Shown here: positions 21,146 to 57,135 of the stretch, piece by piece
How positions within the stretch are numbered: position 1 is the stretch's first letter
How the letters are laid out: each line of letters starts with the position of its first letter
Assembly (NCBI GenBank): GCA_046563655.1
Contig: CM102286.1
Coordinates: forward strand, 6,386,001 to 6,450,000
Length of the DNA: 64,000 nt
Origin: Yuukianura sp. NJ FZ-2021
Lineage: Eukaryota
Reading direction: 5' to 3'
The notes under the pieces: model-generated
What the model was told of the DNA's origin: nothing
The model's database searches: none
Seen by the model: the letters and a program-made list of their open reading frames with translations, nothing else
Position numbers and translations under genes: made by a program

Positions 21146-24100
21146 ATGGACGGAATCCCATGCTATCCAGTTGCGTTGTCGGTAGGGTTACGATGTCCGA
21201 AATGCAAATTTTGAAACCGGCGGATAGTAATCTAATAGATCTTGATGAATTTTTTTTTTGGAAGGTGTTCACTCCATACGGAGTACAGATGAAAAAGCAC
21301 TCTCCGTGGTTTCCACAAGAATGGTGTAATGAATGGCCGCATCAAGCAAGTGCTTTGACTCTGGGAGAATCCAGTGTCATCAAGTACGGAGTGAGTTATC
21401 CTCTTCGAACTGGACTCAACGCACCAGATGAACCAACCGATTACGTAGAATCAGTGACTTTCCTGCCTTTTGACGACCCACTGGAGATTGGAAATAAAAT
21501 TGTGGAAGAAGTGTTCGTGAGTCGTGGAGTTTGTGTTATTTCTCATGGACCGCTTGGAGGGCCATCATTTTTAAAAGGAGTATACCGACCCTTGCTATCG
21601 TACGACACTGGGGTAGGAATATGTGAAGTCGTCAAAGCAAAGTTTCCCAACAAGAATTTCGGGCTAGATCTTTCCGGCGAGAAGTGTAGTAATGGTAAGG
21701 GCTTATATATTCAGTGTCTTAATAAATGCATAATGCCGCGTAATTAATCTTCAAACATTCACTTTCTCTTTTCAGTTCCGGAATCATACATTTGTCTGGC
21801 CGAGAAAGGAGGAATTTCCATTTATGCAGAAAATAACGCCGAAACTCACGTTTCTCATGTACCTGAATTTCATATTGGAAAAATCATGCCCTGCAAGTTT
21901 GGATTACTTCTCATTCCGTCAAAGGCAAAGGATCCTTCCCACACGAAGAGTATGTTCATCCTCTCGCATCCAATTAAACAAGTCAGCAAAGTTTGGATAA
22001 GGCACCGCCCTCATGCTGGTAAGTTCGCCTCCATGTGCAAATCATGACGTTTTAAGTTTGTATACTGATTAGAAATCAGTATACAAACTTAGGTAGTCAC
22101 TCGGAGTAATCACTGATTACTCGTACTCCAAGTATGTTTTGAGCTTACTGCCAGATACTTGTTTGTCTTTTAGATTACTGCGAATATGACGGAACGGAAG
22201 AGCGTCTGAGATGGTGCGAAGAAGATATTTGCATATTTTGGACTGCAAAGAACGACAAAATCATTATTCGTCGTCTCACAGCATTGGAAAAATCGGTAAC
22301 GTTTATAGAATAGTTAACCTAATAGAATACAACCTTAAATCGCTACACTATTGTTTTTACCTGAGTTAATTATTACCTTCCTTCTTAGGAAATCCTTCAA
22401 CTCTCAACGTTGAACGCCACAATGTATCAATCGAATAGCCCGGATTTGTCCAACAAACCATTTCATCTCAGTGCTAACTTTCAGGCCAGCCCTCCGTCGT
22501 CTAAACAGCCATTCACAAGATCTGCAGCCATGAAAGCTAATCGGTAAGTACTAGTAAGTTAGTAAGTAGATATGCAGTAAATGAGTTTATCTGTTCGTCT
22601 TAAGGACGAACTTTGCTGAATTTCAGGATTTAACTCTTTTTTTATTTTGAATTTTAGAGATACTGGATCGTTTACGTTCTGGCCTACTTTTGACTTTGGA
22701 ACCAGTGGTTCCTCGAGCACCAGTATCGGCGTAGGGTTTTATCCGCCGCATGTCTGCATCTACGATGATCCTGAAATCTACTTGAAGCCACTATTTCAAA
22801 TTGATTTACCAAAAACATCTTGGAAACAACCAAGAAAGTTCAAAGTGATAAGTGACATTCCTCTGAAAATCTCGTTATGGTTTCTGATCAAGAATACTCT
22901 CTTCTCTTATGGAATCCAAGTGGACGCTGGAGTGAAATTGGGAAACTACAACATTAAAAACATCGAAGACTTTGCTGTGCCCTGTGGATCCACCAAGTTG
23001 CCTGTGGTGATTCTGCTGGATTGTCATCGCAAACTGTCTCTCGGGTGGTTGGATGCTAATTACAGCCTAGTCTGTAAAAGCTCCTTGGAAATATTCAATT
23101 TGCTTCCTCCTGGAATAGACGTTACTACTTTTGGCATTGAGGAGATGATGTTTGGCGATACAATTATTTTCAACATGACATCCACGGATGCAACAAAATC
23201 TAATAATGGCCTAAGTACTTGCAAGGAGTATGTGAAAGTGCAGCTAAAAAACTACAGAAATAATTGTGTAGTGAGAAGCTTCATTGAGTCTTTGGAGATA
23301 GATTCAGAATTTGAAAGTGCCCTTGTGACCAAGTTGATTGCTCGACTGACCTGTCGTAACGCTGACTCGGACACCACCGATATAAAAGGAAGATTCGATA
23401 GCGTTGCAAAAGAATGGGAAGAATTCTTCAGCTCGATTTGCAGCGTCATTTCATCCGAGCCACTTAGCAAACAAGTTCAAGTCGGAAAGAAATTTGTCAA
23501 AGCAATTGCAGAATTCAGAGAGGTAGGTTTTTAATTTTAACCGTAACAACATGAGCGTTGCCCTTTAACCAAATTTTTTATTTTGTTTCCAGATTTCCAG
23601 CTTGTCCGGTTTCTTCACAGTCCACATGCGAAAATTAGATACTGTTCTGCTCCAACTCACAAGTTTTTTGCAAGCTAACTTTCCTCGGGTATGATATAAG
23701 CGAAGTAGCAGCGTACTTTGTACAATTGGGAGGACACATTGATTATACTAAAAAAAAATACTGAAATAACGGGACTTTTTTCATTTTAGGAGAATCCGAA
23801 ACAAGAAGTTCTTCCTTTACTACCGACGTTTGGATTTTTGTTACTCCAAGAGAATCCATCGTCGTTTCAAGAATTCGAACTTTTACCGGAAGTGTTGCAA
23901 ATCCTTTTGAACAAGCCAGACTCAATGGAGAACATCGAAAAATTAGTTCACATCGGCCGAAGTGAAAAGTTTATTCCAATAGTGCAGTTGCTTATAGCTG
24001 ACGTCTGCCATCGGAACAGTGGATCAATGGATTTCGGAGCTCCGCTGAACGTTTTGACTGCGACTGGGAGAACGGATTATTTGAGTGGAAGGGACACATC

Positions 24101-27100
24101 ATCTTTAGTGAAATCGCTAAGAGATTATTGGCTGGAAGAAACTGAAGAGACTGTTGCCAATTCCACTGATGAGTTAAATGAAGATCTAGCTTGGATGACT
24201 CCATTGCTGACGCTGGTAACGTTAAACGAACGTGTATTTTTAGAACATTATCGACATCGATGTGAGATTGACTGCTTTGATTAATTTTGTGTTTGCTTTT
24301 TCAGCGAATATTTTCCAAAGATCGACGCTTAGAAGAAATATGTAGAATGCTAGACTCCAGCTCCCCGTTGATTGTCGAGGCTGAGCAGAAAGCTGAGATG
24401 TCTGATCATGAATACGTTGAGGAACAAGAGAAGCATCTTCTGCAATTAGTTCAAGTCATATCGGCAGCACCGGTTGGCAGGACGGCACTAACACTTCGGA
24501 CAGACGACTCACCGTATACGAGTTTAACAAGTTTCATCTTTATCCCACAGTAAGTCTAGCAGTTGACTTAAAACCATGGGATTCCAATGGCATATTAAGA
24601 TCTAATTCATTGATTCACTTTTTATAGAATTATCTTTGCGGGAAAATGCAAAGGCAAGGGAACATCAATTGAATTGAACGAAACCGATCTACCAGCATCT
24701 TATACTCATTGGCCACAGTTTCATAACGCAGTAGCTGCTGCAATGTCTATTCGATTTACCCAACCTCCTGCAGACGCCTGGTGAGTTCATACTGGAATAC
24801 TTAACGTAACTTTTTCGATCTATTCAAAGTTTCTAAAACTCAAAATTGTCTATGTTTGTAGGTTTGCTTTCAACAAAACGAAAGTTACTGAAGGTCCTGA
24901 ACAAGCAGGAATGGTTTTGGGGTTTGGCCTCAATGGAATTCTGACAGCAATGCCACCTACTCTAAGGCATGAGTACCTCTCAAAAGAGAACTCGTTTACG
25001 ACAATGGCTATGCTTCTGGGATTAGCTGCGAATTTAGCGGGTAAGTATTGTAGACGACAGTTAATTGAAAATAAGTTAAGAGATTTTAAACAAGTTTTTT
25101 TAACCATGACGTAGGAACCGGCGACATTTCCACTTGGAAGCTGATTAGTCTTCATATTGGAGCAATGCTACCAGCATGTACTACGGAGTTAGACATTCCT
25201 CGTCTCGCAACACTAATTGCTCCAGCCTCGCTCGGACTTCTGTTCCTCGGGACACAGAATTCCTATGTGGCTAAAGTATTACTGGGAGAAATGTCTAAAA
25301 AGTTTACACCCCTAAGTTGTTTTGGCTCCAGTTCAAACAACAATTCTACTTCTGTGGCAAATCCACACGAAAATACAGGAACTACGACAGACCGTGAGGC
25401 TCACTCACTCTGCGCTGGTTTGGGTCTCGGATTTGTCAATCTTGCCAAAGGAAGAGAAAGGACGAGTGGTTTTGCGGATGACGATTTTGATGGAATCTTA
25501 AGGCGGTTTGTCGTCGGTGGTCCGAAACCAGTGATACAGCACGGAGGTATTCAATTAACACGATAATTAGTTAGATTAATCACCTCAAAATAAGGAGTTA
25601 TAATCACAGTAAATTGCTTTAGATGAAGGAGACGAGCGGAACAATCCAGCGGAACAAACTTTGCCATCAATGTGGGAGGAATATCGCTGTTGCCATATTG
25701 AAGAAGGAGATAATGTAAATGTGGACGTCACAACACCGTCAGCTATTATCGCTGTAGCCTTAACATATCTGCGAAGTAAGTTGCTGTTGCAACCCGTTAT
25801 AACTTGTAACCTAGTTGCGATAATTGCTTTAACTATACTTCTGGTTTATCATTGTAGCTGGAAACGAGGCAGTACTGAATTGGCTGGCTCCTCCAGGGAC
25901 ATTGCATTTGCTGGACGGAGTCCGGCCTGATTTGCTCACACTTCGATCTCTTGCGTCCATTTTGGTTTTTGATGCTATAGTGAAACCTGAAGTTTGGTGG
26001 TTGGAATTCAAGCTTTTACCGAAAACATTACAGGATAATGCGTTACAAATTCCAAAGGAATTTACTCGTCTCAATCACGAAAGTATAAAGTAGGTTAATC
26101 TCAGCTTAACTTTCTAACAGAGTTTCCATAAATGAACAATAATGTCATGATTTTTTTTTGGCTTTAGTCAATGCTGGGCTTCAATTGTTTGCGGATATTG
26201 CCTTGGACTTGGAATTCGCTTTGCAGGGACATCCGACAACACCGTGCAAACATCCATTCGTCACTACATTGATCTCTTCCTGAAGTTATCCTCTAAAGAA
26301 TCGAAGCTCTCAGAATTTTTTCCAAAGAATTTCTTGGAATCCTGCATTTGCAATCTCGTCTTGGCTTCTGCCCTAGTTTTGGCCGGAACTGGCAAACTTT
26401 GTGTTCTCAGACTCTGTCGATACTTGCAACGGAAAGTATCCTTGACACCAGCAACAGCATCCAGTACATCATATGGACTGGAAATGTGCATCTCAATGGC
26501 CACTGGAATTCTGTTCCTTGGTGGAGGGCGGTATTCCTTATCGAATGATGACAAAAGTATTGCGATGCTTCTGGCTGCTGTATTTCCGAAATGGCCGATA
26601 AATGCCAACGATAACAGGTAATTTAATAAATTAACTTTAATTAATTAAATTAAGCTATTTTGAAAATTTTGTTTTCCCAGGTACCACATGCAGGCGCTCC
26701 GCTATTTATATATTTTGGCAGCACAACCTCGACTCATCCTGCCCAAGCCAATGCCATTGGGAACTCCGCTAGTATTTGAGATTGATTTTGTCGATGGAGG
26801 GGTCCAGACAGTTCCAGCTCCAGTCCTACTTCCCCCATTTTATCTCATCAAAAAGGCAAGATTTATTTGAAAAGTTTTACAAAGGTTACGAACAAAGTAA
26901 TAAAATGCCTGTTTTTTGCAGATTCGAATGGAGCACGATGAGTATTTTCCGGTAGAATTTCAACTTCCTAGAGATTTGCCGTATTTGAACAAGATTGTGG
27001 AGAACCGCGGCATTTTGAACTTAACAAAAAAGCCAATAGCTTCTGCCAATTATGGATTCGTTCGTGAAATGAGTTGGCGACAAGACACAGTAAGTCCGAG

Positions 27101-27601
27101 ACAATAGTATTTAACTTTGCATATATTTTCTTTTCGTCAGTATTACGTACGATATTATCATAACAATATTTACAAACGTTTTATATTAACAGAATTTCAA
27201 TTCACTATTTGAAATTGACGCATTCACACCAGCAAAAGAAGCTAAGAAAATTAGAGAACTCAATCTAGTTCATCAACTAGCGGAATGGAGTGGAATGAAG
27301 GAAATCGTGTCTCCAGTACTCAACTTGCTAAACGTAAGGAACTCGTTTAATATAAAGAAATATTCGAATTAAATTCGAAATCTTTGTAACTATGAAAACT
27401 TAACAAAAATAACAGGCAGATCCAGCAAATGAAACGGTGGTTTGGCAAATCCGTATTCTACAATGGTGGACAGAAGTGAGCTGTACCAAGAAAATCTCTA
27501 CATGCTTTCCAGCCGACCTCCTGATGCTGCTGAGAACACGAGAAGGTCACTTAATCGACATAACAAAGCCTACCTCTAAACCTCTTCCGAATTACATCTA
27601 G
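21146..27601 (+). CDS. ANAPC1: Anaphase-promoting complex subunit 1 (divergent)
   Basis: FSKDRRLEEICRMLDSS, EMSDHEYVEEQEKHL, WPQFHNAVAAA, EQAGMVLGFGLNG, REAHSLCAGLGLGFVNLAKG, IEEGDNVNVDVTTPS, LGIRFAGT, DNRYHMQALRYLYILA (PC repeats). Last exon 27416-27601 contains VWQIRIL and ends TAG 27599-27601. Start at ATG 21146 is inferred from splicing to VFTPYG. Confidence 0.9.
22053..22122. repeat. Two adjacent perfect hairpins in an APC1 intron
   Basis: TAAGTTTGTATACTGATT-aga-AATCAGTATACAAACTTA (18-bp stem, 22053-22091) and GAGTAATCA-c-TGATTACTC (22104-22122). Confidence 0.9.
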
Positions 27602-27602
27602 T

Positions 27603-28124
27603 TCAGTAGTATTTAATAAATTGAAGACTGCGACTGCGTCCTGTCTTCAAGCTCGATTTTCTTGCAGCAGCGGCCCGGTAACTAAGATCGAAATCATCTG
27701 CAATACGACGCAACTCCTGTCCAATGCGTTCTGGAGAATCAAGTGCTGAGCAGGACACCGTTGCACGGCGTGGTCGTGGTGTATTGGTTCCAGGAATGTC
27801 AACAGCATCTGACCGTGGAATGTCTCTGTCTGCCGACGGTGGCAAAGAGGCAATGAGATCCGGAAGTTCACGTCGTCGACAGTTTCGGCATAAGATTTCT
27901 GCAACAAACAAGAAATTGGATTGTTTACAGTTTAAATCCTCTACCAAACGCCAATCCTCCAAAACCGCAACAATTTTTCGTAGGTAAGTATTTCTAGTTA
28001 ATCTACGATTTAAATTACCTTGTAAGAATGGCGAAGAAGAAAGCAAGGACGGAGATGCATCTGGAGGACTCCAGCCAATCCACGGTGGTGGCGCAGAAAT
28101 AATATTTACTGGTGACGACCTCAT
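27603..28124 (-). CDS. Putative BH3-only pro-apoptotic protein (BAD/BIM-like), ~133 aa if the 120-nt intron 27899-28018 is spliced
   Basis: ATG 28124 with an in-frame upstream stop. CAAG|GTAATT donor and TTGTTGCAG acceptor are in compatible phase. Disordered Pro/Ser-rich chain with SPERIGQELRRIADDFDLSY (BH3 pattern h-x-x-x-L-R-x-h-[AG]-D-x-F); no BH1/BH2 or TM segment. Confidence 0.7.
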   Translation of the reverse strand: MRSSPVNIISAPPPWIGWSPPDASPSLLSSSPFLQGNLNRRLTRNTYLRKIVAVLEDWRLVEDLNCKQSNFLFVAEILCRNCRRRELPDLIASLPPSADRDIPRSDAVDIPGTNTPRPRRATVSCSALDSPERIGQELRRIADDFDLSYRAAAARKSSLKTGRSRSLQFIKYY

Positions 28125-29959
28125 TTTCACATTGGCGCACAAGACGCACGTTGTTTAGCAATTCGTATCTCCGGCTTAATTTTCGAGCGTAAAATGGCTG
28201 CTGTAAAATAAACAACACCAAAAGTTAAACTTCACAATTTCAATTTCAATGGTGGAACGAGAACGACCACTTTTTAATATGTGACTGATGAGTGCTAAAT
28301 TGACACTGAATTCAATTAGGAGGTATGTAAGGTAGTTATATCGATCCTGAGAAAAATTAAGACAATGTTATCGAAATGACCTGGTCATGTCGACGCAAGG
28401 TCGTCTGCCCAGTGTCCGGAGGAAGGACCTGCACTAACCTCCCTTGACCTTGACTTGTTTTCGTTTTCTCAAAGCAGTCAGGAAAAGATCAAAAACCTCA
28501 TCGTCATGATAAGCAAGCATAGACAGGACATAAGGATAGGAAGAATGACTAAAAGCATTGGTTTGAAAGTTTTTAAAAATTGTTCAAAAATTAAACGCCA
28601 TCTTTTTTTCTAAACAGCGCGCCATTTTCCTTTACTTTTGTAACTCTATTTTTCCCGCGGCGATTGTAACGTGACCTACCCTTCAACTGCAGTTTGTTGC
28701 GTTCGACGTTGCGTAGTTTACTTCTGGCGGGAGATGGGTGGGTGGGTTTACTATTGCGTCATTCTCCAGCCAATCGGAAACAAGAAAGTACTTGCTCGCT
28801 TGTGTCCAAATCATTCAAATGCTTCTCGTTCCTTGACCTTTCCATTCTCGTCCACACTGAATCAAAATTACGTCATTTTTCAAGATCAATCACCTTTAAC
28901 TTTAACTACGTTGTTTACGCACTATTTAGTATCATCATCTCATCATGTCGAATGCCCTGTACCTAACTAAACTTCCAATTCCATCTCAAGTTTAATTACA
29001 AAAGGTTAACGTTCCTTTATCTTTCAGACGACGATTCTGTCTTTAAGTAATTCGAGATGCTAGAATTACGTTACCAAGTACTGCCTAGGACCTGGTATTG
29101 CTTTAAAAACAAGCATCTGAAGCTAACGTCGTCATCGATGTCGTTTTTTGACCTAAAAAGTTGGGATTTGTTATTGAAAAAGCTGCCTCGGGCGTTCGAC
29201 CAGCACCAGCTGCTACAAACGTACAAAGTACTACAAAAAAAACTTCAACCTGGTGATAGCGTTGTGTTGTTAAAAACCCTGAACCCCTCTCTTGTTATAA
29301 AAAGTGTCCTTGAGCACAGATTCAATAGGTACTTCCCTACTTTTTGTTCACAAAAAAGGGACCTCGGTCATGCACCCCCTTAACCTAACAAATCAGGGTG
29401 ATTTTGTGGACAATAAGCTTACCTTTACGTAGAAGAAGAGCAGTGAAGGGCCCCCAAATCCCGGTTTGTGGACAACAATAAACACGTTACAAAAGACTTC
29501 CTGTTTCTGACTGATCGACACCTTACACTTTGTTTGTGGTTTTTGTGTTTGAACAAGTGCGAATGGAAGTGACGAAGAAGGGAGATAAGTCCACTTCGGA
29601 AGACGCTTGGAAAGAAACTGACGACGAAAAGGAAGATGCGATGACCACCCTCTTCCCCCACTTACTCACGTGATAACCGAAAATCGTAGTAAAGTCATAT
29701 GTTCCACCACATTTGGGTTGTAAAAGATTTTTTTCTTGAGATGTTCAGCGACCTTACTTTACAAAACAGAACAATGGTATAACTGTGTTATTTAGGTGGT
29801 GTGATCCTGTGTTCCGTCCAGAACGGCGTATCGGGTGTCCGATTATCCGCTATTCAAGTGTGCGTCATAACAAAAACAACCTTCACCTTCTCCCTCCAAA
29901 ACAGTTAATGCGGACATTGACCTCTCTGCGAGGCGCCAACAAGTCTCAACTTGTCACTG

Positions 29960-30590
29960 TCTGTCTCGCTCTCTCTGTCACATTACATTTGATACTCCGC
30001 CCACTTTTATTCCACCTCTTCTCTGGAAGGAACGGGGGACAACGCAACACAACCACAGGGGGATAACGGGATGCGTCGTCACTTCGTCCAAGATTTTGAA
30101 TTTTCCCGCCGTCTCTGCCTGTAACCTTGTAATGATGTCTTGATATCCTCATAACTCCCTCTTCCTACACGACAACTCAAACTCCCCCTCCCTCATGATG
30201 CCAAGAGAACAAAGGAGCCAGACTGGGGAACGTCGTCATGTCGTTTCCAGGATTTTGAAGTTTCCCGCTGTATCTGCTGTACCCTGTACCATACGAAGTG
30301 CAGCTTCTCTCCTCTCCCTACGCCCATTCTAGACTCCGCCTGCTTCCACAGGGAAGCGTAGTAAGGGAATCTCATGCGGCTGCGGGGAAACGTCGTTATG
30401 TCGTTGCCAGGATTTTGAATTTTCCCGCCTTATCTGCCAGTACCAAATCATGTACCGCATCACTCTTCTTTGTATGTTCACTCTAAACTCCGTCTCCCTC
30501 CGAATGGAAAAGTAACAAGAGAGTCATTTGGGGAAATGTCGCGTCGTCCGTCGTGTCGTTTCCTGGAACGTGAATTTTCCCGGTGCTGCT
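29960..30590. repeat. Diverged ~158-bp tandem repeat (about 4 copies) carrying E2F-like TTTCCCGC next to TTTGAA
   Basis: Core cgtcgt...ccaggattttgaa(t/g)tttcccgc recurs with TTTCCCG at ~30102, 30261, 30421 and 30576; the fourth copy is the most degenerate. Confidence 0.85.
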
Positions 30591-30686
30591 GCTTTTAATT
30601 AATAATAATTAATAATTAATTAATAATTTTATTCATAGATTCAATTTCTGCCACTTTTCAAGAAGGTGAGATTTCTATGTGGATTT

Positions 30687-30700
30687 ATTACTATGGTTAC
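30687..30700 (-). promoter_or_regulatory. Candidate RFX X-box upstream of the dynein CDS
   Basis: Reverse complement GTAACCATAGTAAT is a 13/14 match to GTNRCCNNRGYAAC. It lies in a 5' intron of an axonemal dynein gene. Confidence 0.5.
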
Positions 30701-30937
30701 CGTAATGTGCTACTAATTGTTATTCCTACTGTAGGATGTTAACGTTGTTATGAATATATCGTTTCCTTAGATTCGATTTCAGCAGATGACAACAATGCCT
30801 GTGCTGCGACACAACATTTATTGTTCATCCTACTGCTAGTACTGATCGGACGCCAAGCTTCGTGTTTTGGACTTGTACAGCAGTAATCGATTACTTTGTG
30901 CTTGGAAGACACATTTTTTGGAGCTTACAAATCAGCC

Positions 30938-33900
30938 ATGGAAGAGCAAGGTCAAGGAGACTCTGTACCTGCAAGTCGAACACGTCTGTCAAGCGGTGGT
31001 TCTGCGATTTTAGTTGCATCGAAGCTACTGCCTTCACATGTCGCATCAAATGAATCCATTACAGAGAAACTTGTTTGTAAGAATATACGAATTTGAAAAT
31101 AATTTTTAAAATGAAAGTAATGGCGGGATTCTATCAATTTCATTGTTCGCAGCCCTTGATGTGTCGCAACACAAAAAATCGATGCTTCTTCGTCCTCCAC
31201 GACTGATCCCTGGATATCCGAAATGCGTTGACCCCACTGTCGGGTATCCGGAATGTCTTCCTCCTGGGGAAATTGTGCGCAGAGCAATTGCTCCAGAGCA
31301 ACTGTGGGGTATTCCAGTCAACAAGCCTTTGACCAAGGAGCAGTTGATTGACCTCATGAAACAAATGGAAAACTATCCAACAAATGACTATCTCTACTTA
31401 TCTCACGTTTACCCGTTGAAAACGTTGGAGTTCAATCCTTACCTGTTCAAGTTGGTTATTATTCAATTTTCTGATTTTCCTAGTTTCGTAAAGTAATTCT
31501 TTGTTGCTTTTTTGTTTTTGAAAACTAGAATCGTTCAGTACAAGGATATTGATCCAAACAATCATTTTACGCTTAGCAAGTCTGGATTGATGCGTTTTCA
31601 AAAAGGAATGGCTGAATTTACCGACATGGTGAAATTTACCAAACAGCTTTACATTTACGACCGTCTTCGGCAGGTTATTCTAAAATACGTTCGTGATTGT
31701 CAAATCTTAACTTCAAATTTGAATAATTTTCGGTTTGTTTTTAGGTTCCATTCCTGATGTTGTATCCGATGTACAAATCTTTTCGAATTTGGAGAGCCAA
31801 TATTTGTCAAAGCCGAATGAAGAAAAATCGAAAGCTGTTGGAAGAATCCTTGTTCACAACAAAACGTCCTTTACGTGGACTTTTGACACTTCTTTTTAGA
31901 ATGATTGAAAAAGTAGCAATGACTCATTTTGATTTTTCTATTTTGAAGAATCAAGGAATTATTTGAATTTTTTATCTTTCAGATTTCTGAGATGGGATTT
32001 CTCTCTTTTGTGACCACTTCAACCTACGACGTGAAGGATTTCGTAACAAGCCAGGAAAATCGTTTAGAAATTATTCTCAAACGTTTCGAAGCTTTTGAAA
32101 AAATGGTGGTGGAACTTACTGAGAACGCCTGCCGAACTTACTTGGTTGATTGTGGCTTTTCCGCCGATCATTATGAGGGGGAGGTCAAATTCTATCTGAA
32201 AAGCTTAACAAGTAAAACGATTCCTGCTTTCTTTATTTCCAGAATTGAGTTTTCAAAATAATTAACAGTTTGGATTGACTTGCAGTTCCAGTTGAGGACC
32301 TGAACGACGAAGTTTCAAATTTTATGGACTACCCCGGTCAATGGCTTCCGTATTCATTGCAGGCCAAAAAGAGGCGAATTTGTGGAAGACTTTCGAAGTA
32401 ATGTTTTTAGTTTTCAGATACTTGTGACTGTGACGTTAATTGGTTTTCATTGGATTGATTTCACTGTAAGTTTTGTTACTTTTAGTTTTATTCACCTTGT
32501 TGACTACTACGTTCAAGCTGCGTACCATCGAGTGCTAAAACGTTCCGTTTTACAACTAATGGTGGAATTTCATGCGCGTACAAAATTGATTCCCGGTGAC
32601 CTTGGAGGGCAGCTAGCATATTTCCATACATATTCAGTTCTTCGCAAGAAAAATGAGGCTTTGGTAATAATATGTTCGTTTGAATTTAAGTTTAAAGTGT
32701 TGGTTTTAATGCCAGGTTTATTTCTGAATTTAGCATGGAAAAATTGCGTCGACTGACACTACTGCAATTGGTCCGATTTTTGAACTTGGATGCTCGTACA
32801 ACGTAGACGGCATTACATTCAATCCACCACAAAACAAGTTTCTCAAGCACATACAGACTATTTTCAATATTTGGAAGAACGTAGTTTGTGGATATAAAAA
32901 TTTGCTTCCGGATGAAACGTTCAATCCATATACACAGTAATTTCAAAGTTCACCGCTTTTGTTTGAAAACCTGTTTCTTGATTTATTTGAAGCTGACATT
33001 CAAAATTTCATTTCCAGACCAATTGTGAACGGTTACATGGAAGCGAAAACTTGTGGTGATGGACCTAACGTTGAATTGCATTACAATACGGATCCAGATT
33101 TGTTCGAAGTTGAAGACACAATTGAAGCGATCATCAACCACGCTTTCCATGCTTGCAAACAATACGTGGATTCTTTTGACTCTATCAGACAGTTTTGTTT
33201 GGAAAACGATACTAGCGACTTCGAAAAGACGATTTCAGAAATTGAAAGTAAGGATACATTTGTTTTAAATTTTAGAATTACAAACGCTAAGTTTCAATTG
33301 GTGAATATTCTTTTTACACAGATGTTAATGAACTCATGAAGCTAATGGACAAGTATCACAAGCAACTGAAGCAAGTGGAAGAAATGGAAAAAGAAAAAGT
33401 AATCGGAATTTTCCTAGTCAACAATGAAATTTTTCGGGAAAATGTCACTCCATCGGTCATGCGTGTTATCGATGTTCTCCACGATCATATTCCGAAGTTA
33501 GCGGCGTTATTCAAAATCCTTTCGTATTAACTTTATGATTAACGAAAGTTAAAAACGAAACGCAATTTCAGGGTCGGGAGGAAGCTTCTGTGGGCTTTGA
33601 CGCTTCGGATTGAGGAGGCGGAAGCCAAAATCGCAAAATACCCAGAAACGGCGGAAGAGTATGCCGAATACTTGTTATTTCTAGACGATATTCAAAAACA
33701 GGTTAGTCTAAACGATAACATCTTAACCATCGTAAGGACCTTGAAAAATAATCCCAAATAATCCCGCGCTTTGCAGATGGATGACATTGAACGTGAACTT
33801 GATGACTGCGGTGAACTGGCAGATATGATTGAAACTTACAAAATGGAGACCACCGAAGACGAAACACAAGGATATGCCGTAAGCTGAATTTAAGAAAAAT

Positions 33901-35968
33901 TCTTTACCGTAAAACTTCTGAATGATGACGGTCTTAAAAAGCGCCAGGGTTCCCTTTTAAACGCCGAGATTAAGAGTTGAGATTTTTAATAAACGCCCGG
34001 GCATTTATCAGAAGTTTTGCGGTAGGCCTAATTGCTTAAGCAAATGATTAAAATGCTGATGTTTAGAATCTAGTGCCTCTTCTGAACAAACTTCGGGGCG
34101 ACATTGAAGATCATCTGGAGAATCGCGAAAAAGTTATTACCGAATTGCTGGAGCAGTTCGAAATTTTCCGCGCCAAAGTGTTTTCTGACCTTGAAGAAAT
34201 TCGCACACTTATACACGTATGAAAAACTGTGAAACAAAGTACTTTCGATTTAGTAAAAATTCAATTCAAAAATAATTTAACTTATTGTTTTCATTTCCAG
34301 GCTCCTAATGTTCTCGACGCTAAATCGGACACACCTTCTATGAAACTGACAATGCAAGACTGCAAAGACTTGCTGGAAAGTTATGTCGAACGAGCGGCCA
34401 AGTTTAACAATTACCAAAAGCAATTGGAGGTTCTCTAAAAAAATATCTTACGGATATTTAAGATTTAATTCTTGATTTGATTTGATTTTGATTTTTATTA
34501 TTTTTCTTTATTTTATTATATTTCTTACTCTGTTATTATTATAATTATTATTATTATTTTTTTTTGAAGTTGGAAGTTACAGACTACAGCGCTTTGGACG
34601 AACTAAACGTCGAAGTGAAACTGCGACATCAATTGTGGGAGTCGATGTTTAATTGGGATGTACAAAAAGAAGCTTGGGACAATTCTTCTTTTGCGATACT
34701 GGACCACGCAGAGATGACAAACGAAGTGAACAAGTACATTGAGAGCATCCGCCAACTCGAGGAAGGCTTGCCACCAAATGATGTCGTGCCAATTCTGAGA
34801 ACCAAAGTTGAATACATGAAGACACAAGTAATTGAGCAAAATGCAAAATATTCCAAAATCAAGAATAGGAGCAAATCGCCTGAATTTTGTTTGTTTCCAG
34901 ATTTCTTTGGTCTCACTTCTTCATAATCCACATCTGAAAGATCGCCATTTTGCCGTACTGGAGGAGAGGATGAATTTCAAGGTAACCGGTGATGAGCCAA
35001 CGCTCAAGAGCCTGAATGAAGCTGGACTTGAAAGTTTCACTGACTTCATCAAAGAAATTTCGGACCAAGCAACATCAGAGTACAATCTGGGAGTTGATTT
35101 GAGCGAATTACAAGATTCTTGGAAAAATACTGAATTTGGCATTATCGCTTACAAGGTAATTTCTAAAAACTTTTTACGAAAATTAAGAAAACCCTACTCA
35201 CGTTTGTTTTTGTTTTCAAGAACCAACGAGGCATATTTATTCTCGGAGGAATTGAGGAAATTAAAGCCAAACTGCAAGACACGTACATGCGAATGGAGTC
35301 GATTGCTAATTCTCCCTTCGTTGAACCAATTCATGAGCAGTTGGAAGAATGGGTTGCTCTGATGGATTTGTTTTCAAAGACCTTGGTAAAGATCTTATGG
35401 AAAACATTTGAACTTTCTACAAATCAGCAAATTATGAGAACTTACATCATCTTTAACTTGCTTTTTTTTTTCAGACTGACTGGCTTATATGCCAGCAGCG
35501 ATGGATTCAACTGGAAGGTATCTTTTCAGCTCCTGAGATTCAGCGCCAGTTTCCGGTTGAAGATAATTTGTTTGCTCAAGTGGACAAACGTTGGGTAGAG
35601 CTTATGCGACGAACTAACAAGGTCAGCACCACCGGAAGAACAAATCATTTTCTTTGTTGTCCTCATCTTCAATAATTATTATTATTCCTATACTTTAATG
35701 TTGTTATCAATAGATGCCGGTTGCAATCCGAGCTGCAATGACTCCAGGGTTGCTGGACCAGATTAAGTTGAACATTGAAACCATGGACGAAATCACAAGC
35801 AGTCTCGAAGAACAAGGTTTTACTCTGGCCAATTTAGAGTGTCAATCTGGGTCGGAGGGTGAGTGCAATATAAAACTGCTTGAATTGGTGGAAGAAGAGG
35901 AAGATGAGGAGGAAGAAGCAGAAGCAGAAGTCAGCAAAAAGCCACTCAAAAAGAGTATCCCAAAATAA
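30938..35968 (+). CDS. Axonemal dynein heavy chain, DNAH6-like; tail plus partial linker only, truncated before the AAA+ ring
   Basis: DNAH6-type N-terminal tail (FNPYLFKIV...FTLSKSG...KSFRIWRANI...LEESLF) and DHC_N2 motifs (NPHLKDRHF, ISDQATSEYNL, ILGGIEEI, SPFVEPI, CQQRWIQLEGIFSAPEIQRQFP..FAQVDKRW). The last exon diverges into an acidic/basic tail and stops at 35968. No Walker A motif. Confidence 0.8.
33907..34022. mobile_element. Small MITE (Tc1/mariner/pogo type) in a dynein intron
   Basis: Terminal inverted repeats CCGTAAAACTTCTGA... / ...TCAGAAGTTTTGCGG (1 mismatch in 15, extendable to ~25 bp imperfect), flanked by TA on both sides; internal AAA(A/G)CGCC subrepeats. Confidence 0.75.
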
Positions 35969-48500: not shown

Positions 48501-50691
48501 TATGTCATGTTATACCGGTGTTTTACTTTCTCACTCTTCTTGTAGTTTGTCGTGGCGGTTATACATGGAACCTCCACAGATTCCAGACAAAGGTGTGGAA
48601 TTTCTCGAAAGGCTATGCAATATGGAATCGCAGTCCGCCAAAGCTTTGGAACTTTTGAAGGAATTGACGACTAAGCGGCCAAAGAAGTTACATTATCTCA
48701 GTATTTTGCTGGCTTTTTGTTCCCATGCATTTGAACCAGTACGAACTTGACATTTGACAATTTTTAGCAAAAACATGTCCTACACAGTATCATTAGTCAA
48801 GACTTACATAATTTTTTTTTTAGATCCGGACAAACGCTGTCAACTGTACTCTGGATTTGTACAAAACTGGGGAATCTGTAAAGATAATTGAAGATAAAGC
48901 CTTGAATTCTTACCTCTCATCACTGAAGCTCCAAAAACCACCAGAAATCCTGTTTATGGATGGTCTCGGACGTGAGCAAATGGAGCCGGAATGGACAGAG
49001 GAAATGGCACGAGCATCACTTCATCTCTACCTTGCTTTAGTTTCTGTCAAGAATGACTTGATCCATGAGTAATAAGTGAAGATTATATTCGTTACCGATT
49101 TCGGAGACGAAGATGTTGAGTTTACGGTTTGTTTTTGCGTTTCAGGTTGGCAAAAGTTTACGTAGAAACTCCTCCAGACGTGAAGCGTACAATACTGCGT
49201 GTCGTGGAGCAACCAGTTAGACAAATGGGTCCAGATTCAGTGGAGTTAATGAAACTTGTGGACACATTTCCAAAAGGATCAGAAACTCTTATAACCAGAA
49301 TCATTCATATCCTAACTGACAAGAGTGAGTTCATTTCCAAGCATGACATGACCGACTAATAATAGGATTAACAAATACATGATTTTGATTTGGTTGTTGA
49401 TTTAGCTCCTCCCAGTGCAGATCTAGTTGCACGAGTTCGGAATTTGTACAACAAAAGAATCTTTGATGTTCGGTTTCTGATACCGGTTTTGAATGGGTTA
49501 ACAAAACAGGAAATTATAACAGCCTTGCCTAAGCTCATTCAGCTGAATCCAAATGTCGTCAAAGAGGTAGACAGAGTTTCGTTAGATTAATGAAAACAGG
49601 TATGGAGGAGTTTGGTAATACTGTTGTTTTCCTGTTTCAATTTAGGTCTTCAATCGCTTATTGGGAATTCACGTGGATACTGCTAATCCTCAACAGGAAA
49701 GCCCAATCACTCCAGAGGAACTCATGGTCGAACTCCACCGTATGGATATTACGGGTAACAAGTGTGACATCAAAAGTGTGATTCGAGGTAACATCAAAAT
49801 ACATTTGTTCTTAATGGCTGAGCTCTTACAAAACCAATATTTCGTCGTTTCTAGCCACTTCTCTTTGTTTCGCCGAAGTGGATGTCTACACACAAGAAGC
49901 ATTGGCCAAAATCATCAACCAACTTGTAGAAATAAATCCCCTTCCGACATTGTTAATGCGAACTGTCATCCAGACTCTGAACCTCCATCCGAAACTCCTT
50001 GGTTTTGTTATGAATATACTAGCTCGATTGATTAGGAAACAGGTGAGGGGCAACGTTTGATTTTTATTTAAAGTATTCTTGTACTACTGTTTGAGACATG
50101 CATTTCCTAATTTCTCAGGTATGGGCTCAGCCCAAAGTTTGGGAGGGATTTGTGAAATGCTGTCAACGGACGTTGCCAAAGAGTATTCCCGTTCTTCTTA
50201 TGCTTCCAAATGCCCAACTAAAACAAGTTCTGGAAGATGAGAAGGATTTGCGACAGTCCACTGCAAACTACGTTATGGGATTGCCGGATCAACAGGTATT
50301 TGACTCTGTAGTTGGAGATAGGAAGGAACGAAGGAAGCATTCGGCTTGGCAATAATTTTGATATTATTTATTTTATATTTACAGAGAAGCCAAATACCGC
50401 AGTATGTTCAGGATATTGTTCTGAAAATCGGGATTTACCCGAAGACTGAATATTACGATTACGACAATGATGTTACAGAACTGTCTTCCTCCAACCATTC
50501 GTTCACGCCTTATTCAATTAAACGGGAACCTGTAAGTTAATGAACCATGTCAGTCTTAATTTGCAGAAACAGTGAGTCATTTCTTTCTAAATTATTTGTA
50601 TTTTTTTTTGCAGCGTTCACCCGGCAGGAGAGATTCAGATTCTAAATTCAAAACTGAACCATTGGACTACCACAATAACAACGACGATTAA
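45577..50691 (+). CDS. SYMPK: Symplekin (CPSF / histone-cleavage-complex scaffold)
   Basis: [67 protein letters not shown]...[56 protein letters not shown]; stop 50689-50691. Confidence 0.93.
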
Positions 50692-51489
50692 CATTTTGAG
50701 ACGAGCGCTTAAGGCTAAGCCGATCGGGATTCTGGGATCCATAAACATCGTACCTGCACAGTTCACAGAAAGCTTTTTGGTTCAGCTACTCATCGCAGTC
50801 TCTACTAATACTGAACTTTTGAACTTAATATTCTAAACAACTAAGGTAAACGTAATGGATTCATCAGTTTATATTTGTACTACATAGCAGTTTTTTGTAT
50901 TGTTAGTTGATCATCTAAACTCCATATAACCAAACCCAAGATTCAATGGTAGTTATTACAATTTTTTTTTTGAAATAATATCTCTGCATTGTCGTTCATT
51001 TAAGCAGAAACAGATCGAAAATGTGCTGCATAATATCGTCAGTACATGGGTGCAGCCTTTCTTTTATTTCAATCATAATTTCTCTGTGTAATTGGTAAAC
51101 ATATATAATTAAAATGATTTTTTAGGTAACACATCATCCCAGAATATATGTAATCCGTCTGTTGAATTAATTTTTATACGTGATTGCTTTAAGTTACAAA
51201 ATCCTAATTAAATACTCTAATAATAATGTAGCTTCTGCTGTTACAAACCCTTGCCTGGATATTTGCATTTAGTATCACAATTTGTTGTAATTTTGCTTTA
51301 CAGATTAATGTAAATGTATAGGTCCTAAAAATAAAAAAATAGTGTCAAAATTAAATTTTTTTAATAAAAATATTTGGTTCGACGCGTTTAAGTTCTATCA
51401 AGTCATATAGCCGCCAACGCAATAGCCACAATCCGCAAGCCGACAACGTCAAAAGTTGTGTCAAAAATACACGGTTTATAGGTTTACAG

Positions 51490-54400
51490 CAAATTTTTTG
51501 GAAATACTGCATTTTTTTTTAGCTCATTCGCAAAGAATTTACGTTTCTATCATTTCTGTTCCAAAGATACGAAACTTAACATTTTTAAAATTTCAAAAAC
51601 TTTCTGAATTAATTATTTTTTTTAACTTTCAAAAATTCATATCACGGGTACGGAATAACGGAAAGCGATAGATAGCTAACATAAATTTTCAAAATTTTAT
51701 TTTAATTTAAAAAAAACTTTAGAAATTCGTATCTTTGGAACGGAAAGCGATAGAGAGGTAAACTCTTCGCTCCTGAATTCACAAAAATATGCAGTATTTT
51801 AAGAAAATATAAAAAGGTACCCTCAGATTTTGACGAAATTTCGAAAAAATCCATGGACTATATATAGTCCATGGTTTTTTTCAAAATTTGACGAAAAACT
51901 TGATGTTCGATTTTGGAGTTTTCAAAATTTTTAAAAATTAGTCATGTTTTTTGAAAGTTTTTCGCGAAAAGATTAGGTCTCTATCGCGTTCCGTTCTCGA
52001 GATATAAATTTTCAAAATTTCATTTTAATTTTCAAAAACTTTCAAAATTCATAACTCGGGAACGGAAAGCGATAGAAAGGTAAACTCTTCGCCGCTGAAT
52101 TCACAAAAATAAATAGTATTTTTAGAAAATATAAAAAGGTACCCTCAGATTTTGACGAAATTTCGAAAAAATCCATGGACTATAGTCCATGGTTTTTTTC
52201 AAAATTTGACGAAAAACTTGATGTTCGATTTTGGAGTTTTCAAAATTTCTAAAATTTCTTCATCTGTTTTGAAAGTTTTTCGCGAAGAGATTAGGTCTCT
52301 ATCGCTTTCCGTTCTCGAGATATAAATTTTCAAAATTTCATTTTAATTTTCAAAAACTTTCAAAATTCATAACTCGGGAACGGAAAGCGATAGAAAGGTA
52401 AACTCTTCGCCGCTGAATTCACAAAAATAAATAGTATTTTTAGAAAATATAAAAAGGTACCCTCAGATTTTGACGAAATTTCGAAAAAATCCATGGACTA
52501 TAGTCCATGGTTTTTTCAAAATTTGACGAAAAACTTGATGTTCGATTTTGGAGTTTTCAAAATTTCTAAAATTTCTTCATCTGTTTTGAAAGTTTTTCGC
52601 GAAGAGATTAGGTCTCTATCGCTTTCCGTTCTCGAGATATAAATTTTCAAAATTTCATTTTAATTTTCAAAAACTTTCAAAATTCATAACTCGGGAACGG
52701 AAAGCGATAGAAAGGTAAACTCTTCGCCGCTGAATTCACAAAAATAAATAGTATTTTTAGAAAATATAAAAAGGTACCCTCAGATTTTGACGAAATTTCG
52801 AAAAAATCCATGGACTATAGTCCATGGTTTTTTTCAAAATTTGACGAAAAACTTGATGTTCGATTTTGGAGTTTTCAAAATTTCTAAAATTTCTTCATCT
52901 GTTTTGAAAGTTTTTCGCGAAGAGATTAGGTCTCTATCGCTTTCCGTTCTCGAGATATAAATTTTCAAAATTTCAATTTAATTTTCAAAAACTTTCAAAA
53001 TTCATAACTCGGGAACGGAAAGCGATAGAAAGGTAAACTCTTCGCCGCTGAATTCACAAAAATAAATAGTATTTTTAGAAAATATAAAAAGGTACCCTCA
53101 GATTTTGACGAAATTTCGAAAAAATCCATGGACTATAGTCCATGGTTTTTTTCAAAATTTGACGAAAAACTTGATGTTCGATTTTGGAGTTTTCAAAATT
53201 TCTAAAATTTCTTCATCTGTTTTGAAAGTTTTTCGCGAAGAGATTAGGTCTCTATCGCTTTCCGTTCTCGAGATATAAATTTTCAAAATTTCATTTTAAT
53301 TTTCAAAAACTTTCAAAATTCATAACTCGGGAACGGAAAGCGATAGAAAGGTAAACTCTTCGCCGCTGAATTCACAAAAATAAATAGTATTTTTAGAAAA
53401 TATAAAAAGGTACCCTCAGATTTTGACGAAATTTCGAAAAAATCCATGGACTATAGTCCATGGTTTTTTTCAAAATTTGACGAAAAACTTGATGTTCGAT
53501 TTTGGAGTTTTCAAAATTTCTAAAATTTCTTCATCTGTTTTGAAAGTTTTTCGCGAAGAGATTAGGTCTCTATCGCTTTCCGTTCTCGAGATATAAATTT
53601 TCAAAATTTCATTTTAATTTTCAAAAACTTTCAAAATTCATAACTCGGGAACGGAAAGCGATAGAAAGGTAAACTCTTCGCCGCTGAATTCACAAAAATA
53701 AATAGTATTTTTAGAAAATATAAAAAGGTACCCTCAGATTTTGACGAAATTTCGAAAAAAAATCCATGGACTATAGTCCATGGTTTTTTTCAAAATTTGA
53801 CGAAAAACTTGATGTTCGATTTTGGAGTTTTCAAAATTTCTAAAATTTCTTCATCTGTTTTGAAAGTTTTTCGAGAAGAGATTAGGTCTCTATCGCTTTC
53901 CGTTCTCGAGATATAAATTTTCAAAATTTCATTTTAATTTTCAAAAACTTTCAAAATTCATAACTCGGGAACGGAAAGCGATAGAAAGGTAAACTCTTCG
54001 CCGCTGAATTCACAAAAATAAATAGTATTTTTAGAAAATATAAAAAGGTACCCTCAGATTTTGACGAAATTTCGAAAAAATCCATGGACTATAGTCCATG
54101 GTTTTTTTCAAAATTTGACGAAAAACTTGATGTTCGATTTTGGAGTTTTCAAAATTTCTAAAATTTCTTCATCTGTTTTGAAAGTTTTTCGCGAAGAGAT
54201 TAGGTCTCTATCGCTTTCCGTTCTCGAGATATAAATTTTCAAAATTTCATTTTAATTTTCAAAAACTTTCAAAATTCATAACTCGGGAACGGAAAGCGAT
54301 AGAAAGGTAAACTCTTCGCCGCTGAATTCACAAAAATAAATAGTATTTTTAGAAAATATAAAAAGGTACCCTCAGATTTTGACGAAATTTCGAAAAAATC

Positions 54401-57135
54401 CATGGACTATAGTCCATGGTTTTTTTCAAAATTTGACGAAAAACTTGATGTTCGATTTTGGAGTTTTCAAAATTTCTAAAATTTCTTCATCTGTTTTGAA
54501 AGTTTTTCGCGAAGAGATTAGGTCTCTATCGCTTTCCGTTCTCGAGATATAAATTTTCAAAATTTCATTTTAATTTTCAAAAACTTTCAAAATTCATAAC
54601 TCGGGAACGGAAAGCGATAGAAAGGTAAACTCTTCGCCGCTGAATTCACAAAAATAAATAGTATTTTTAGAAAATATAAAAAGGTACCCTCAGATTTTGA
54701 CGAAATTTCGAAAAAATCCATGGACTATAGTCCATGGTTTTTTTCAAAATTTGACGAAAAACTTGATGTTCGATTTTGGAGTTTTCAAAATTTCTAAAAT
54801 TTCTTCATCTGTTTTGAAAGTTTTTCGCGAAGAGATTAGGTCTCTATCGCTTTCCGTTCTCGAGATATAAATTTTCAAAATTTCATTTTAATTTTCAAAA
54901 ACTTTCAAAATTCATAACTCGGGAACGGAAAGCGATAGAAAGGTAAACTCTTCGCCGCTGAATTCACAAAAATAAATAGTATTTTTAGAAAATATAAAAA
55001 GGTACCCTCAGATTTTGACGAAATTTCGAAAAAATCCATGGACTATAGTCCATGGTTTTTTTCAAAATTTGACGAAAAACTTGATGTTCGATTTTGGAGT
55101 TTTCAAAATTTCTAAAATTTCTTCATCTGTTTTGAAAGTTTTTCGCGAAGAGATTAGGTCTCTATCGCTTTCCGTTCTCGAGATATAAATTTTCAAAATT
55201 TCATTTTAATTTTCAAAAACTTTCAAAATTCATAACTCGGGAACGGAAAGCGATAGAAAGGTAAACTCTTCGCTCCTGAACTCACAAAAATAAATAGTAT
55301 TTTTAGAAAATATAAAAAGGTACCCTCAGATTTTGACGAAATTTCGAAAAAATCCATGGACTATAGTCCATGGTTTTTTTCAAAATTTGACGAAAAACTT
55401 GATGTTCGATTTTGGAGTTTTCAAAATTTCTAAAATTTCTTCATCTGTTTTGAAAGTTTTTCGCGAAGAGATTAGGTCTCTATCGCTTTCCGTTCTCGAG
55501 ATATAAATTTTCAAAATTTTAGATAAATTTTCAAAAACTTTCAAAATTCATAACTCGGGAACGGAAAGCGATAGAAAGGTAAACTCTTCGCCGCTGAATT
55601 CACAAAAATAAATAGTATTTTTAGAAAATATAAAAAGGTACCCTCAGATTTTGACGAAATTTCGAAAAAATCCATGGACTATAGTCCATGGTTTTTTTCA
55701 AAATTTGACGAAAAACTTGATGTTCGATTTTGGAGTTTTCAAAATTTCTAAAATTTCTTCATCTGTTTTGAAAGTTTTTCGCGAAGAGATTAGGTCTCTA
55801 TCGCTTTCCGTTCTCGAGATATAAATTTTCAAAATTTTAGATAAATTTTCAAAAACTTTCAAAATTCATAACTCGGGAACGGAAAGCGATAGAAAGGTAA
55901 ACTCTTCGCCGCTGAATTCACAAAAATAAATAGTATTTTTAGAAAATATAAAAAGGTACCCTCAGATTTTGACGAAATTTCGAAAAAATCCATGGACTAT
56001 AGTCCATGGTTTTTTTCAAAATTTGACGAAAAACTTGATGTTCGATTTTGGAGTTTTCAAAATTTCTAAAATTTCTTCATCTGTTTTGAAAGTTTTTCGC
56101 GAAGAGATTAGGTCTCTATCGCTTTCCGTTCTCGAGATATAAATTTTCAAAATTTTAGATAAATTTTCAAAAACTTTCAAAATTCATAACTCGGGAACGG
56201 AAAGCGATAGAAAGGTAAACTCTTCGCCGCTGAATTCACAAAAATAAATAGTATTTTTAGAAAATATAAAAAGGTACCCTCAGATTTTGACGAAATTTCG
56301 AAAAAATCCATGGACTATAGTCCATGGTTTTTTTCAAAATTTGACGAAAAACTTGATGTTCGATTTTGGAGTTTTCAGAATTCCTAAAAATTCTTCATCT
56401 GTTATGGAAGCTTTACGCGAAGAGATTAGGTCTCAATCGCCTTTCGTTCCTGGGACATAAATTTTCAAAAAGTATTCAGTAATTCAAAGGCATTCCGTCA
56501 AATTGTTAAAGTTTGTGCGTTCTTTGAAAAAAATTTTTTTTGTTAGCATAATCGAATAGAGATAATGTAGTGTTGGGGTAGCGGTAGCATAAGTTTGTAC
56601 CAAATTCGGTTAGAATCGCGGAAAGTGGATTTATTTTCTAACATTAAATGTCCAGAACCTTAGATCTCAATAATACGAATCAGAAATGGTATCCATTGCT
56701 GAGCGAGTTCATAAATTGATTTTTATTTCAATCATAATTTCTTCATCTGTTTTGAAAGTTTTTCGCGAAGAGATTAGGTCTCTATCGCTTTCCGTTCTCG
56801 AGATATAAATTTTCAAAATTTCATTTTAATTTTCAAAAACTTTCAAAATTCATAACTCGGGAACGGAAAGCGATAGAAAGGTAAACTCTTCGCCGCTGAA
56901 TTCACAAAAATAAATAGTATTTTTAGAAAATATAAAAAGGTACCCTCAGATTTTGACGAAATTTCGAAAAAATCTATGGACTATAGTCCATGGTTTTTTT
57001 CAAAATTTGACGAAAAACTTGATGTTCGATTTTGGAGTTTTCAAAATTTCTAAAAATTCTTCATGTTTTTTGAAAGTTTTTTGTGAAGAGTTTAGGTCTC
57101 TATCGCCTTGCGTTCCCGGGATATAAATTTTCAAA
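51490..57135. repeat. Tandem satellite of 318-bp internally palindromic units (15 consecutive copies, a 16th after an interruption, degenerate edges)
   Basis: GGTACC anchors at 51816, 52138, 52456, 52773, 53091, 53409, 53727, 54047, 54365, 54683, 55001, 55319, 55637, 55955, 56273 and 56939. Each unit contains the palindrome CCATGGACTATAGTCCATGG. Confidence 0.97.

Follow-up and report, generated by a model that had tools for sequence, protein, structure and literature searches.

BH3-only proteins are stress sensors that start mitochondrial apoptosis. The locus described here raises the question of whether such a protein is encoded by a small, unannotated gene at positions 27603 to 28124 of a 64-kb stretch of contig CM102286.1 (the whole stretch is called the window, and coordinates without a locus name are counted from its first letter), immediately beside the gene for APC1. 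An earlier first-pass annotation of the window had proposed a BH3-only gene at this position. Two parts of that question can be answered with different degrees of confidence: (i) the gene is almost certainly real, conserved, and protein coding; and (ii) its product is probably a BH3-only protein of the BIM/BAD type, acting as a predicted ligand of Bcl-2-family proteins.

Gene structure, relatives, and selection

The small two-exon open reading frame (ORF) of about 133 amino acids claimed in the first-pass annotation was borne out, and we could assign it to the minus strand, which had been left unstated. The gene runs from an ATG at 28124 to 28122, the first ATG past an upstream in-frame stop, to a TGA at 27605 to 27603, with two exons and GT-AG borders; joining the exons by script gave a spliced coding sequence of 402 nucleotides (nt), corresponding to 133 amino acids. 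Its parts are as follows.

28019 to 28124, minus strand: coding part of exon 1 (106 nt, phase 1), with an M-x-S-P start, an ...LSSSPFLQ end, and the donor context CAAG/GTAAT
27899 to 28018, minus strand: intron of 120 nt (GT...AG), with the 3′ end TTGCAG after a pyrimidine-rich tract
27603 to 27898, minus strand: coding part of exon 2, carrying the conserved blocks and the BH3, through the TGA stop

The intron is stop-free and in frame, so that an unspliced reading of 173 amino acids is also open and intron retention in the window gene would yield a protein of that length. A forkhead/FoxO-type GTAAACAA within the intron (27921 to 27928) was not significant: the window holds 8 occurrences where 4.3 are expected, a count that 5 of 100 shuffles attained.

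Relatives of the protein were recovered by several searches. Two close homologs, P0003 (62% identity) and P0004 (61% identity), were the matches among 14 candidates of a word-indexed search. An exhaustive HMMER profile search across 1,835,955,588 representatives recovered both of these and returned five proteins in all at E ≤ 0.001, the three new ones being P0005 (E = 6.8e-16), P0006 (E = 2.7e-6), and P0007 (E = 6.9e-5). A second profile search, again word indexed, gave seven matches at E ≤ 1 among 5950 candidates and added P0008 (E = 1.3e-5); it also listed P0009 (E = 0.48), in which a TQT motif and a BIM-type BH3 are combined with a hydrophobic tail. Among metagenome contigs, three loci were confirmed out of 194 pattern matches: L001 and L002 encode P0003 and P0004, respectively, whereas L003 is more distantly related. 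The eight BH3-bearing sequences compared below are thus those of the window, P0003/L001, P0004/L002, P0005, P0006, P0007, P0008, and L003. P0003 through P0007 each form a singleton cluster, come from environmental or run-derived assemblies, and have neither name nor accession, and P0008 and P0009 are listed without a name. The expectation that annotation pipelines miss such a gene agrees with this outcome, in that the collections searched held no named homolog and seven relatives without name or accession.

Homologous first exons were found in L001 (368 to 452) and L002 (994 to 1090), both reading M-x-S-P ... LSSSP[FY]IQ and ending in a G/GT donor. In the window gene and in both of these loci, the intron has the same position and phase (phase 1), at lengths of 120 nt (window), 55 nt (L001), and 142 nt (L002); because 55 nt is not a multiple of 3, splicing is needed in L001 to hold the frame. 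Across the same three sequences (116 to 123 aligned codons), the Nei-Gojobori ratio of nonsynonymous to synonymous substitution rates (dN/dS) was 0.187, 0.228, and 0.214, with dS of 1.44 to 1.66. These are well-separated species, and the gene is under purifying selection, which the first-pass annotation had set down as a check and which holds gene-wide at a dN/dS of about 0.2. As a six-frame control, we examined the gap-free blocks of exon 2, in which the sense frame alone was stop-free (0 of 87 codon pairs) and had the lowest ratio of nonsynonymous to synonymous differences (pN/pS = 0.33 to 0.42); the antisense frame that shares wobble positions came close (pN/pS = 0.38 to 0.48) but contained 5 to 6 stop-bearing pairs. 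The codon alignments behind these ratios were built on the sense-frame protein alignment, which somewhat favors that frame and to this extent counts against the result.

An exon-intron structure and phase kept despite different intron lengths, a low dN/dS reached with saturated synonymous sites, a sense frame that alone is free of stops, and synteny across diverged species (see below) contradict an origin of the ORF and its motif by chance in the sequence 3′ of APC1, with no gene there at all. That explanation draws on the shortness and low complexity of the ORF and on the expectation that a large scan will produce one motif match somewhere, and we regard it as the least probable of all the explanations considered here.

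The BH3 motif and its relation to known families

The motif and the predicted helix that contains it lie in exon 2.

27690 to 27725, minus strand: BH3 core IGQELRRIADDF, 12 residues (h1 I, small G, h2 L, h3 I, small A, D, acidic D, h4 F)
27666 to 27734, minus strand: sole predicted helix, covering the BH3 (residues 55 to 77 of the exon-2 peptide; AlphaFold2 on alignment A2)

At all of its positions, the core conforms to the canonical BH3 signature (h1, small, x, x, h2 [L], x, x, h3, small [G/A/S], D, acidic, h4) as it is defined in the accessible text of PMC10107002. It is contained in the 20-residue stretch SPERIGQELRRIADDFDLSY, which the first-pass annotation had described as a helix at about 27687 to 27731; the stretch is present as described but occupies 27678 to 27737 on the minus strand. 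A loose canonical BH3 pattern matched a single time in the six-frame translation of the window, at the IGQELRRIADDF site, and simulated 64-kb sequences held a mean of 0.033 matches (10 of 300 with a match). A stricter, BIM-like pattern was matched in 0 of 300 simulated sequences. Although unusual for a single window, a motif of such rarity should turn up sooner or later when many windows are scanned; the evidence therefore lies not in the motif alone but in its conservation among relatives.

This conservation is strong. The string G-Q-E-L-R-x-I-x-D-x-x-D, with eight core positions, is unchanged in 8 of 8 BH3-bearing sequences, the window included, and the BH3 is the longest invariant block across the eight, with flanks that diverge to 31 to 45% identity. 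In the four sequences for which DNA is at hand, the codons of the core Leu, Arg, Glu, Gln, and Gly differ synonymously, which argues that selection acts on the peptide and not on the nucleotides.

The predicted fold is that of a disordered protein with one helix. The AlphaFold2 model had a mean predicted local distance difference test score (pLDDT) of 59.2, rising to 80 in the block of residues 61 to 70, and everything outside the helix was predicted as coil, including the proline-rich region upstream of the BH3, which has no α1/BH4 helix. The candidate protein matched neither the Bcl-2 domain (PF00452) nor any non-BH3 domain of Pfam at E ≤ 10, and no Bcl-2 domain was found among the ORFs of at least 90 amino acids in the 64-kb window. 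The absence of BH1 and BH2 asserted in the first-pass annotation therefore stands, on both the Pfam result and the single modeled helix, as does the asserted absence of a transmembrane anchor. The C terminus of the window protein (...GRSRSLQFIKYY) is short and basic, not hydrophobic; the window copy has no membrane anchor, and in the relatives no hydrophobic tail that could be placed in an exon was found downstream.

We compared the protein with known BH3 families in three ways. In Pfam, the best match of the window protein was to the BIM BH3 family Bclx_interact (PF08945; E = 2.8e-5, 24.3 bits, gathering cutoff of 25 not reached), followed by Bcl-2_BAD (PF10514) over the BH3 region (E = 0.046, 14.6 bits, gathering cutoff of 28.2 not reached). 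A match to an unrelated family had been named in the first-pass annotation as an outcome that would speak against a BH3-only gene; these two sub-cutoff matches, to BIM BH3 and BAD, were the sole Pfam matches. No match to Bim_N (PF06773) or to BMF (PF15185) was found in the window protein at E ≤ 10. Three relatives scored 20.9, 18.5, and 20.6 bits against Bclx_interact, and four relatives gave no match. Among PDB sequences, 12 distinct chains were matched at E ≤ 10; one was unrelated and 11 were BH3 segments, from BIM (four chains), BAD (three), PUMA (two), and the BH3 region of Bcl-xL itself (two), so that peptides of all three proteins with which an alignment had been claimed (BIM, BAD, and PUMA) were indeed recovered. 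Finally, the ten clusters listed as nearest neighbors by a protein language model were all BH3 carriers and all chordate (BAK fragment, 0.90; BMF, 0.88, 0.87, and 0.85; PXT1, 0.88; BIM, 0.86; NOXA, 0.80; BIK, 0.80).

The top-ranked of these neighbors, a cluster named "BAK protein (Fragment)," would fit a BH3 exon belonging to a multidomain Bcl-2-family gene (Bak/Bok-like) with BH1, BH2, and transmembrane exons located elsewhere. So would the string GTAAG, which directly follows RSRSxSx, a segment downstream of the BH3, in L001 (795 to 800), L002 (1541 to 1546), and L003 (1839 to 1844), where it represents either a consensus splice donor or the codons V-S or V-R. Judging from these loci, the relatives may use a third exon at GTAAG or make an alternative isoform there. 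In L003, an acceptor near 1911 (about 1911 to 1961) would add 16 residues, including RRRLST, and then a stop. This short stretch is the sole candidate third exon, however, and in L002 the distance between the ORF and APC1 is just 175 nt. No such GTAAG occurs in the window, where the reading frame ends 1 nt from the APC1 stop with no donor before its own stop. Given in addition that no window ORF of at least 90 amino acids matches the Bcl-2 domain and that proline-rich coil occupies the region upstream of the BH3 where an α1/BH4 helix would be looked for, we consider a multidomain gene highly improbable.

Among individual BH3-only proteins, the closest likeness is to BIM (BCL2L11), BAD, and BMF, and it is partial in each case. 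BIM has a nearly identical BH3 core (the query ERIGQELRRIADDFDLSYRA aligns to the BIM peptide of PDB 1pq1_B), gave the best Pfam match, and is likewise disordered. It has a C-terminal hydrophobic membrane anchor, and BIM and BMF share the motif TQT, by which they bind dynein light chain (LC8). The window protein differs from BIM in lacking Bim_N, the C-terminal anchor, and TQT, and in scoring 24.3 bits against the cutoff of 25. BAD, which is under the control of phosphorylation and 14-3-3 proteins, resembles the window protein in its weak Pfam match over the BH3 and in having no membrane anchor, and the window protein has Arg-rich R-x-x-S and R-x-R-x-x-S/T sites flanking its BH3; it departs from BAD in a score (14.6 bits) far under 28.2, in the conserved RSRS after the BH3, and in the lack of a Ser inside the BH3 core. 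BMF accounts for three of the ten listed language-model clusters, has no obvious transmembrane segment, and shows the order of TQT and then BH3 that is found in distant relatives of the window gene; in contrast, the window protein had no Pfam BMF match, and its BH3 is nearer to that of BIM by PDB comparison.

Several points weigh against reading the protein as a BH3-only ligand of this type. Every Pfam score lies under its curated cutoff, and at E ≤ 1 the BIM BH3 model was matched by four of the eight family members (the window protein, P0003, P0004, and P0005). The PDB matches are individually not significant (E = 0.17 to 1.3). Profile-profile comparison with P0009, which has the architecture of BIM, gave a similarity that is 95.5% probable but restricted to 29 columns around the BH3, a motif that can evolve convergently. 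From 26500 to 34500, the minus strand encodes no TQT, and the window copy of the gene also has no membrane anchor. A Bcl-2-family partner in the host genome is presumed. Lastly, Bcl-2 proteins play a minor role in Drosophila apoptosis according to the introduction of PMC10107002, and a nonapoptotic role is therefore possible. Because the similarity is confined to about 29 columns, homology with vertebrate BIM, BAD, or BMF is not demonstrable. The protein cannot be filed under the Pfam BIM or BAD family, given scores below the cutoff, the 29-column similarity, and a window copy without Bim_N, membrane anchor, or TQT; what we describe is a likeness to the BIM/BAD type, not membership.

Conserved motifs outside the BH3 and proposed function

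The first-pass annotation had expected conservation to be confined to the BH3. This expectation failed: three or four other short blocks are kept too. Those in the window protein are listed from the N-terminal to the C-terminal side.

27837 to 27866, minus strand: block LPDLIASLPP, after the basic run RRR; aligns with DEPD[VI] of the long relatives P0007 and P0008 (family pattern [EL]PD[LVI])
27789 to 27821, minus strand: block IPRSDAVDIPG (family pattern [IV]PR[ST]xA[IVM]xIP); P, R, A, I, and P identical across all 6 members of alignment A2; P0008 has a variant
27759 to 27776, minus strand: RPRRAT (R-x-R-x-x-T), within a basic cluster upstream of the BH3; the cluster is conserved, the phospho-acceptor is not present in all relatives
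27627 to 27638, minus strand: C-terminal RSRS (R-x-x-S); R87 and S90 invariant in 6 of 6 sequences of alignment A2, a candidate basophilic-kinase or 14-3-3 site

The R-x-x-S within RSRS sits 15 to 30 residues after the BH3, and the motif listing contains further sites of the RRxS type besides RSRS. The D-E-P-D of the long relatives resembles D-x-x-D, a caspase-type cleavage site.

In the three most distant relatives (P0007, P0008, and L003), the segment upstream of the BH3 reads R-T-I-[AG]-T-Q-T-P and then [FI]-[IV]-F-P-D-P, with the TQT segment extending to R-T-I-[AG]-T-Q-T-P-T-E (at about 1225 to 1275 in L003). In L003, a separate first exon carries the TQT; it ends in phase 1, as exon 1 of the window gene does.

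These blocks bear on an alternative in which the product, conserved and disordered, would use its BH3-like helix as a short linear motif outside Bcl-2-regulated apoptosis, be it for another partner, autophagy, mitochondrial dynamics, or metabolism, and would resemble BIM by convergence. Several blocks outside the BH3 are equally conserved and have no assigned function, the likeness to known BH3-only proteins is limited to the same narrow set of columns, the Pfam scores fall short, and BH3-like motifs occur also in proteins unrelated to death, as stated in the accessible part of PMC10107002. On the other hand, all canonical signature positions are satisfied, no other block invariant across the eight sequences is as long as the BH3, three independent methods (Pfam, PDB, and the language model) place Bcl-2-family BH3 segments nearest, and three relatives have TQT in the order found in BIM and BMF. 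On balance, we judge a nonapoptotic motif a reasonable but unlikely reading.

If the protein is instead a BH3-only ligand of the BIM/BAD type, as we think probable, its action can be sketched by analogy with the BIM, BAD, and PUMA complexes. A protein disordered save for one amphipathic helix would occupy the groove of a Bcl-2-family protein with that helix, inserting its I, L, I, and F and the conserved Asp. Occupancy of the groove would either neutralize a pro-survival member or activate a Bax-, Bak-, or Bok-like one, and the expected outcome would be cell death by the mitochondrial, caspase-dependent route. With I, L, I, F, two small residues, and Asp, the core is BIM-like, which suggests that binding may be broad and tight. 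The remaining conserved motifs (the basic cluster, PR[ST]xAxxIP, and the R-x-x-S in RSRS) are most likely regulatory handles; for the R-x-x-S and RxRxxS/T sites, kinase control with sequestration, as in BAD, is one possibility. TQT in the distant relatives may provide cytoskeletal tethering of the BIM/BMF kind, a module that the window lineage would have lost.

A broader evolutionary scenario, which we put forward tentatively and hold to be somewhat doubtful, is that the gene is the surviving protostome, probably arthropod, form of an ancestral bilaterian BIM/BMF-type gene that combined a TQT tether, a BH3, and a phospho-switch, was kept tail to tail with APC1, and in the window lineage shed TQT and became BAD-like. 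If this were true, the three-part Bcl-2 switch (pro-survival, effector, and BH3-only) would not have been lost at the base of the arthropods; its loss or replacement would be limited to certain lineages, for example flies.

A different kind of death regulator was considered and rejected. Inhibitor of apoptosis (IAP) antagonists of the Reaper/Hid type start with Ala-x-Pro-x, and the N termini of the window protein and its relatives (M-R-S-S-P, M-I-S-P, and M-A-S-P) are, by eye, unlike this start.

The literature offers few arthropod proteins for comparison. According to the accessible sections of the Sayonara paper (PMC10107002), the view for two decades was that Drosophila, and possibly the insects as a whole, lack BH3-only proteins, in agreement with the long-presumed absence cited in the first-pass annotation. 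The same annotation had called the BH3 of Sayonara noncanonical, which does not agree with those sections, where a typical signature is presented. Sayonara (CG14044) is described there as a 378-residue protein that has coiled-coil domains and carries its BH3, LAYNLGVIGDARK, in a region between helices, the motif having arisen within Diptera. It is likewise a proposed arthropod BH3-only protein that standard homology searches did not flag, and by this description it differs from the window protein, which is short and disordered and has a BIM-type BH3. A 2022 survey seeded with BIM, BAD, and BMF (PMC8998228) reports, in its accessible text, deuterostome and possibly lophotrochozoan candidates but none from insects; within Ecdysozoa, EGL-1 was the only one. 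As far as that text describes them, Caenorhabditis elegans EGL-1/CED-13 and the echinoderm, cnidarian, and schistosome candidates resemble the window gene in being small, disordered invertebrate proteins with the BH3 on a single exon; no sequence relation to EGL-1/CED-13 or the other invertebrate candidates surfaced in searches with the window protein. The accessible portion of a 2026 review (PMC13303787) contained nothing further on arthropod BH3-only proteins. Within the literature searched (subscription journals and supplements lay outside its scope), we found no canonical arthropod BH3-only protein besides Sayonara and no occurrence of the string GQELRRI. The gene is thus a likely new, unannotated member of the known BH3-only class, with no earlier report of its family in that literature.

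A conserved BIM-type BH3-only gene in a compact, arthropod-like invertebrate genome would offer a handle on whether the vertebrate-style Bcl-2 switch operates there, and the case shows how such genes escape annotation. The weight of the finding depends on the host animal and would be greater if the host is an arthropod and binding is shown.

The APC1 neighborhood and the remainder of the window

The neighbor of the BH3 gene at its 3′ end is a convergent APC1 gene.

27413 to 27601, plus strand: last coding exon of APC1 (stop TAG at 27599 to 27601)

Its identity follows from a match of window positions 26151 to 26621 to residues 1457 to 1600 of human ANAPC1 (E = 3e-25). The AATAAA of APC1 (27615 to 27620) falls, in antisense, within the final codons (F-I-K) of the minus-strand BH3 gene; with the stops of the two genes only 1 nt apart, the 3′ untranslated regions of both must overlap. 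This overlap may account for the C terminus of the window protein, which reads LQFIKYY where the relatives have S[FL]S[FL].

The first-pass annotation had suggested looking for the gene at APC1-syntenic loci of related species, and it is present beside APC1 in L002 and L003. In both of these, the two loci long enough to be informative (2 of 2), the gene stands tail to tail with APC1 exons as it does in the window; L001 ends 278 nt past the ORF, too short to show the arrangement.

Within APC1, a 304-amino-acid open exon (22620 to 23534) yielded no homolog of 533 to 2000 amino acids at E ≤ 1e-10 among 2146 candidates and no Pfam family. It appears that this stretch is poorly conserved or that the search was crowded out.

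The window as a whole derives from a compact metazoan genome of about 40% G+C content and holds genes for SRP54, UNC-79, APC1, a dynein heavy chain, an Sgt1-like protein, and symplekin; the gene encoding dynein-heavy-chain domains starts upstream of the BH3 gene, on the plus strand. A symplekin exon scored 49 and 42 bits against PDB 4imi and 3gs3, which we take to be Drosophila chains, compared with 28 bits against 3o2q and related chains, presumably human. This comparison is the sole hint of a protostome or arthropod host, and a weak one; Rfam yielded 0 matches, and searching the Atlas with an APC1 exon brought up mixed phyla. Farther along, about 8 kb (50000 to 58000) contain no ORF of at least 90 amino acids in any frame and have a G+C content of 30 to 33%, versus about 40% elsewhere; this low-G+C stretch sits between the symplekin gene and an SH3-domain exon.

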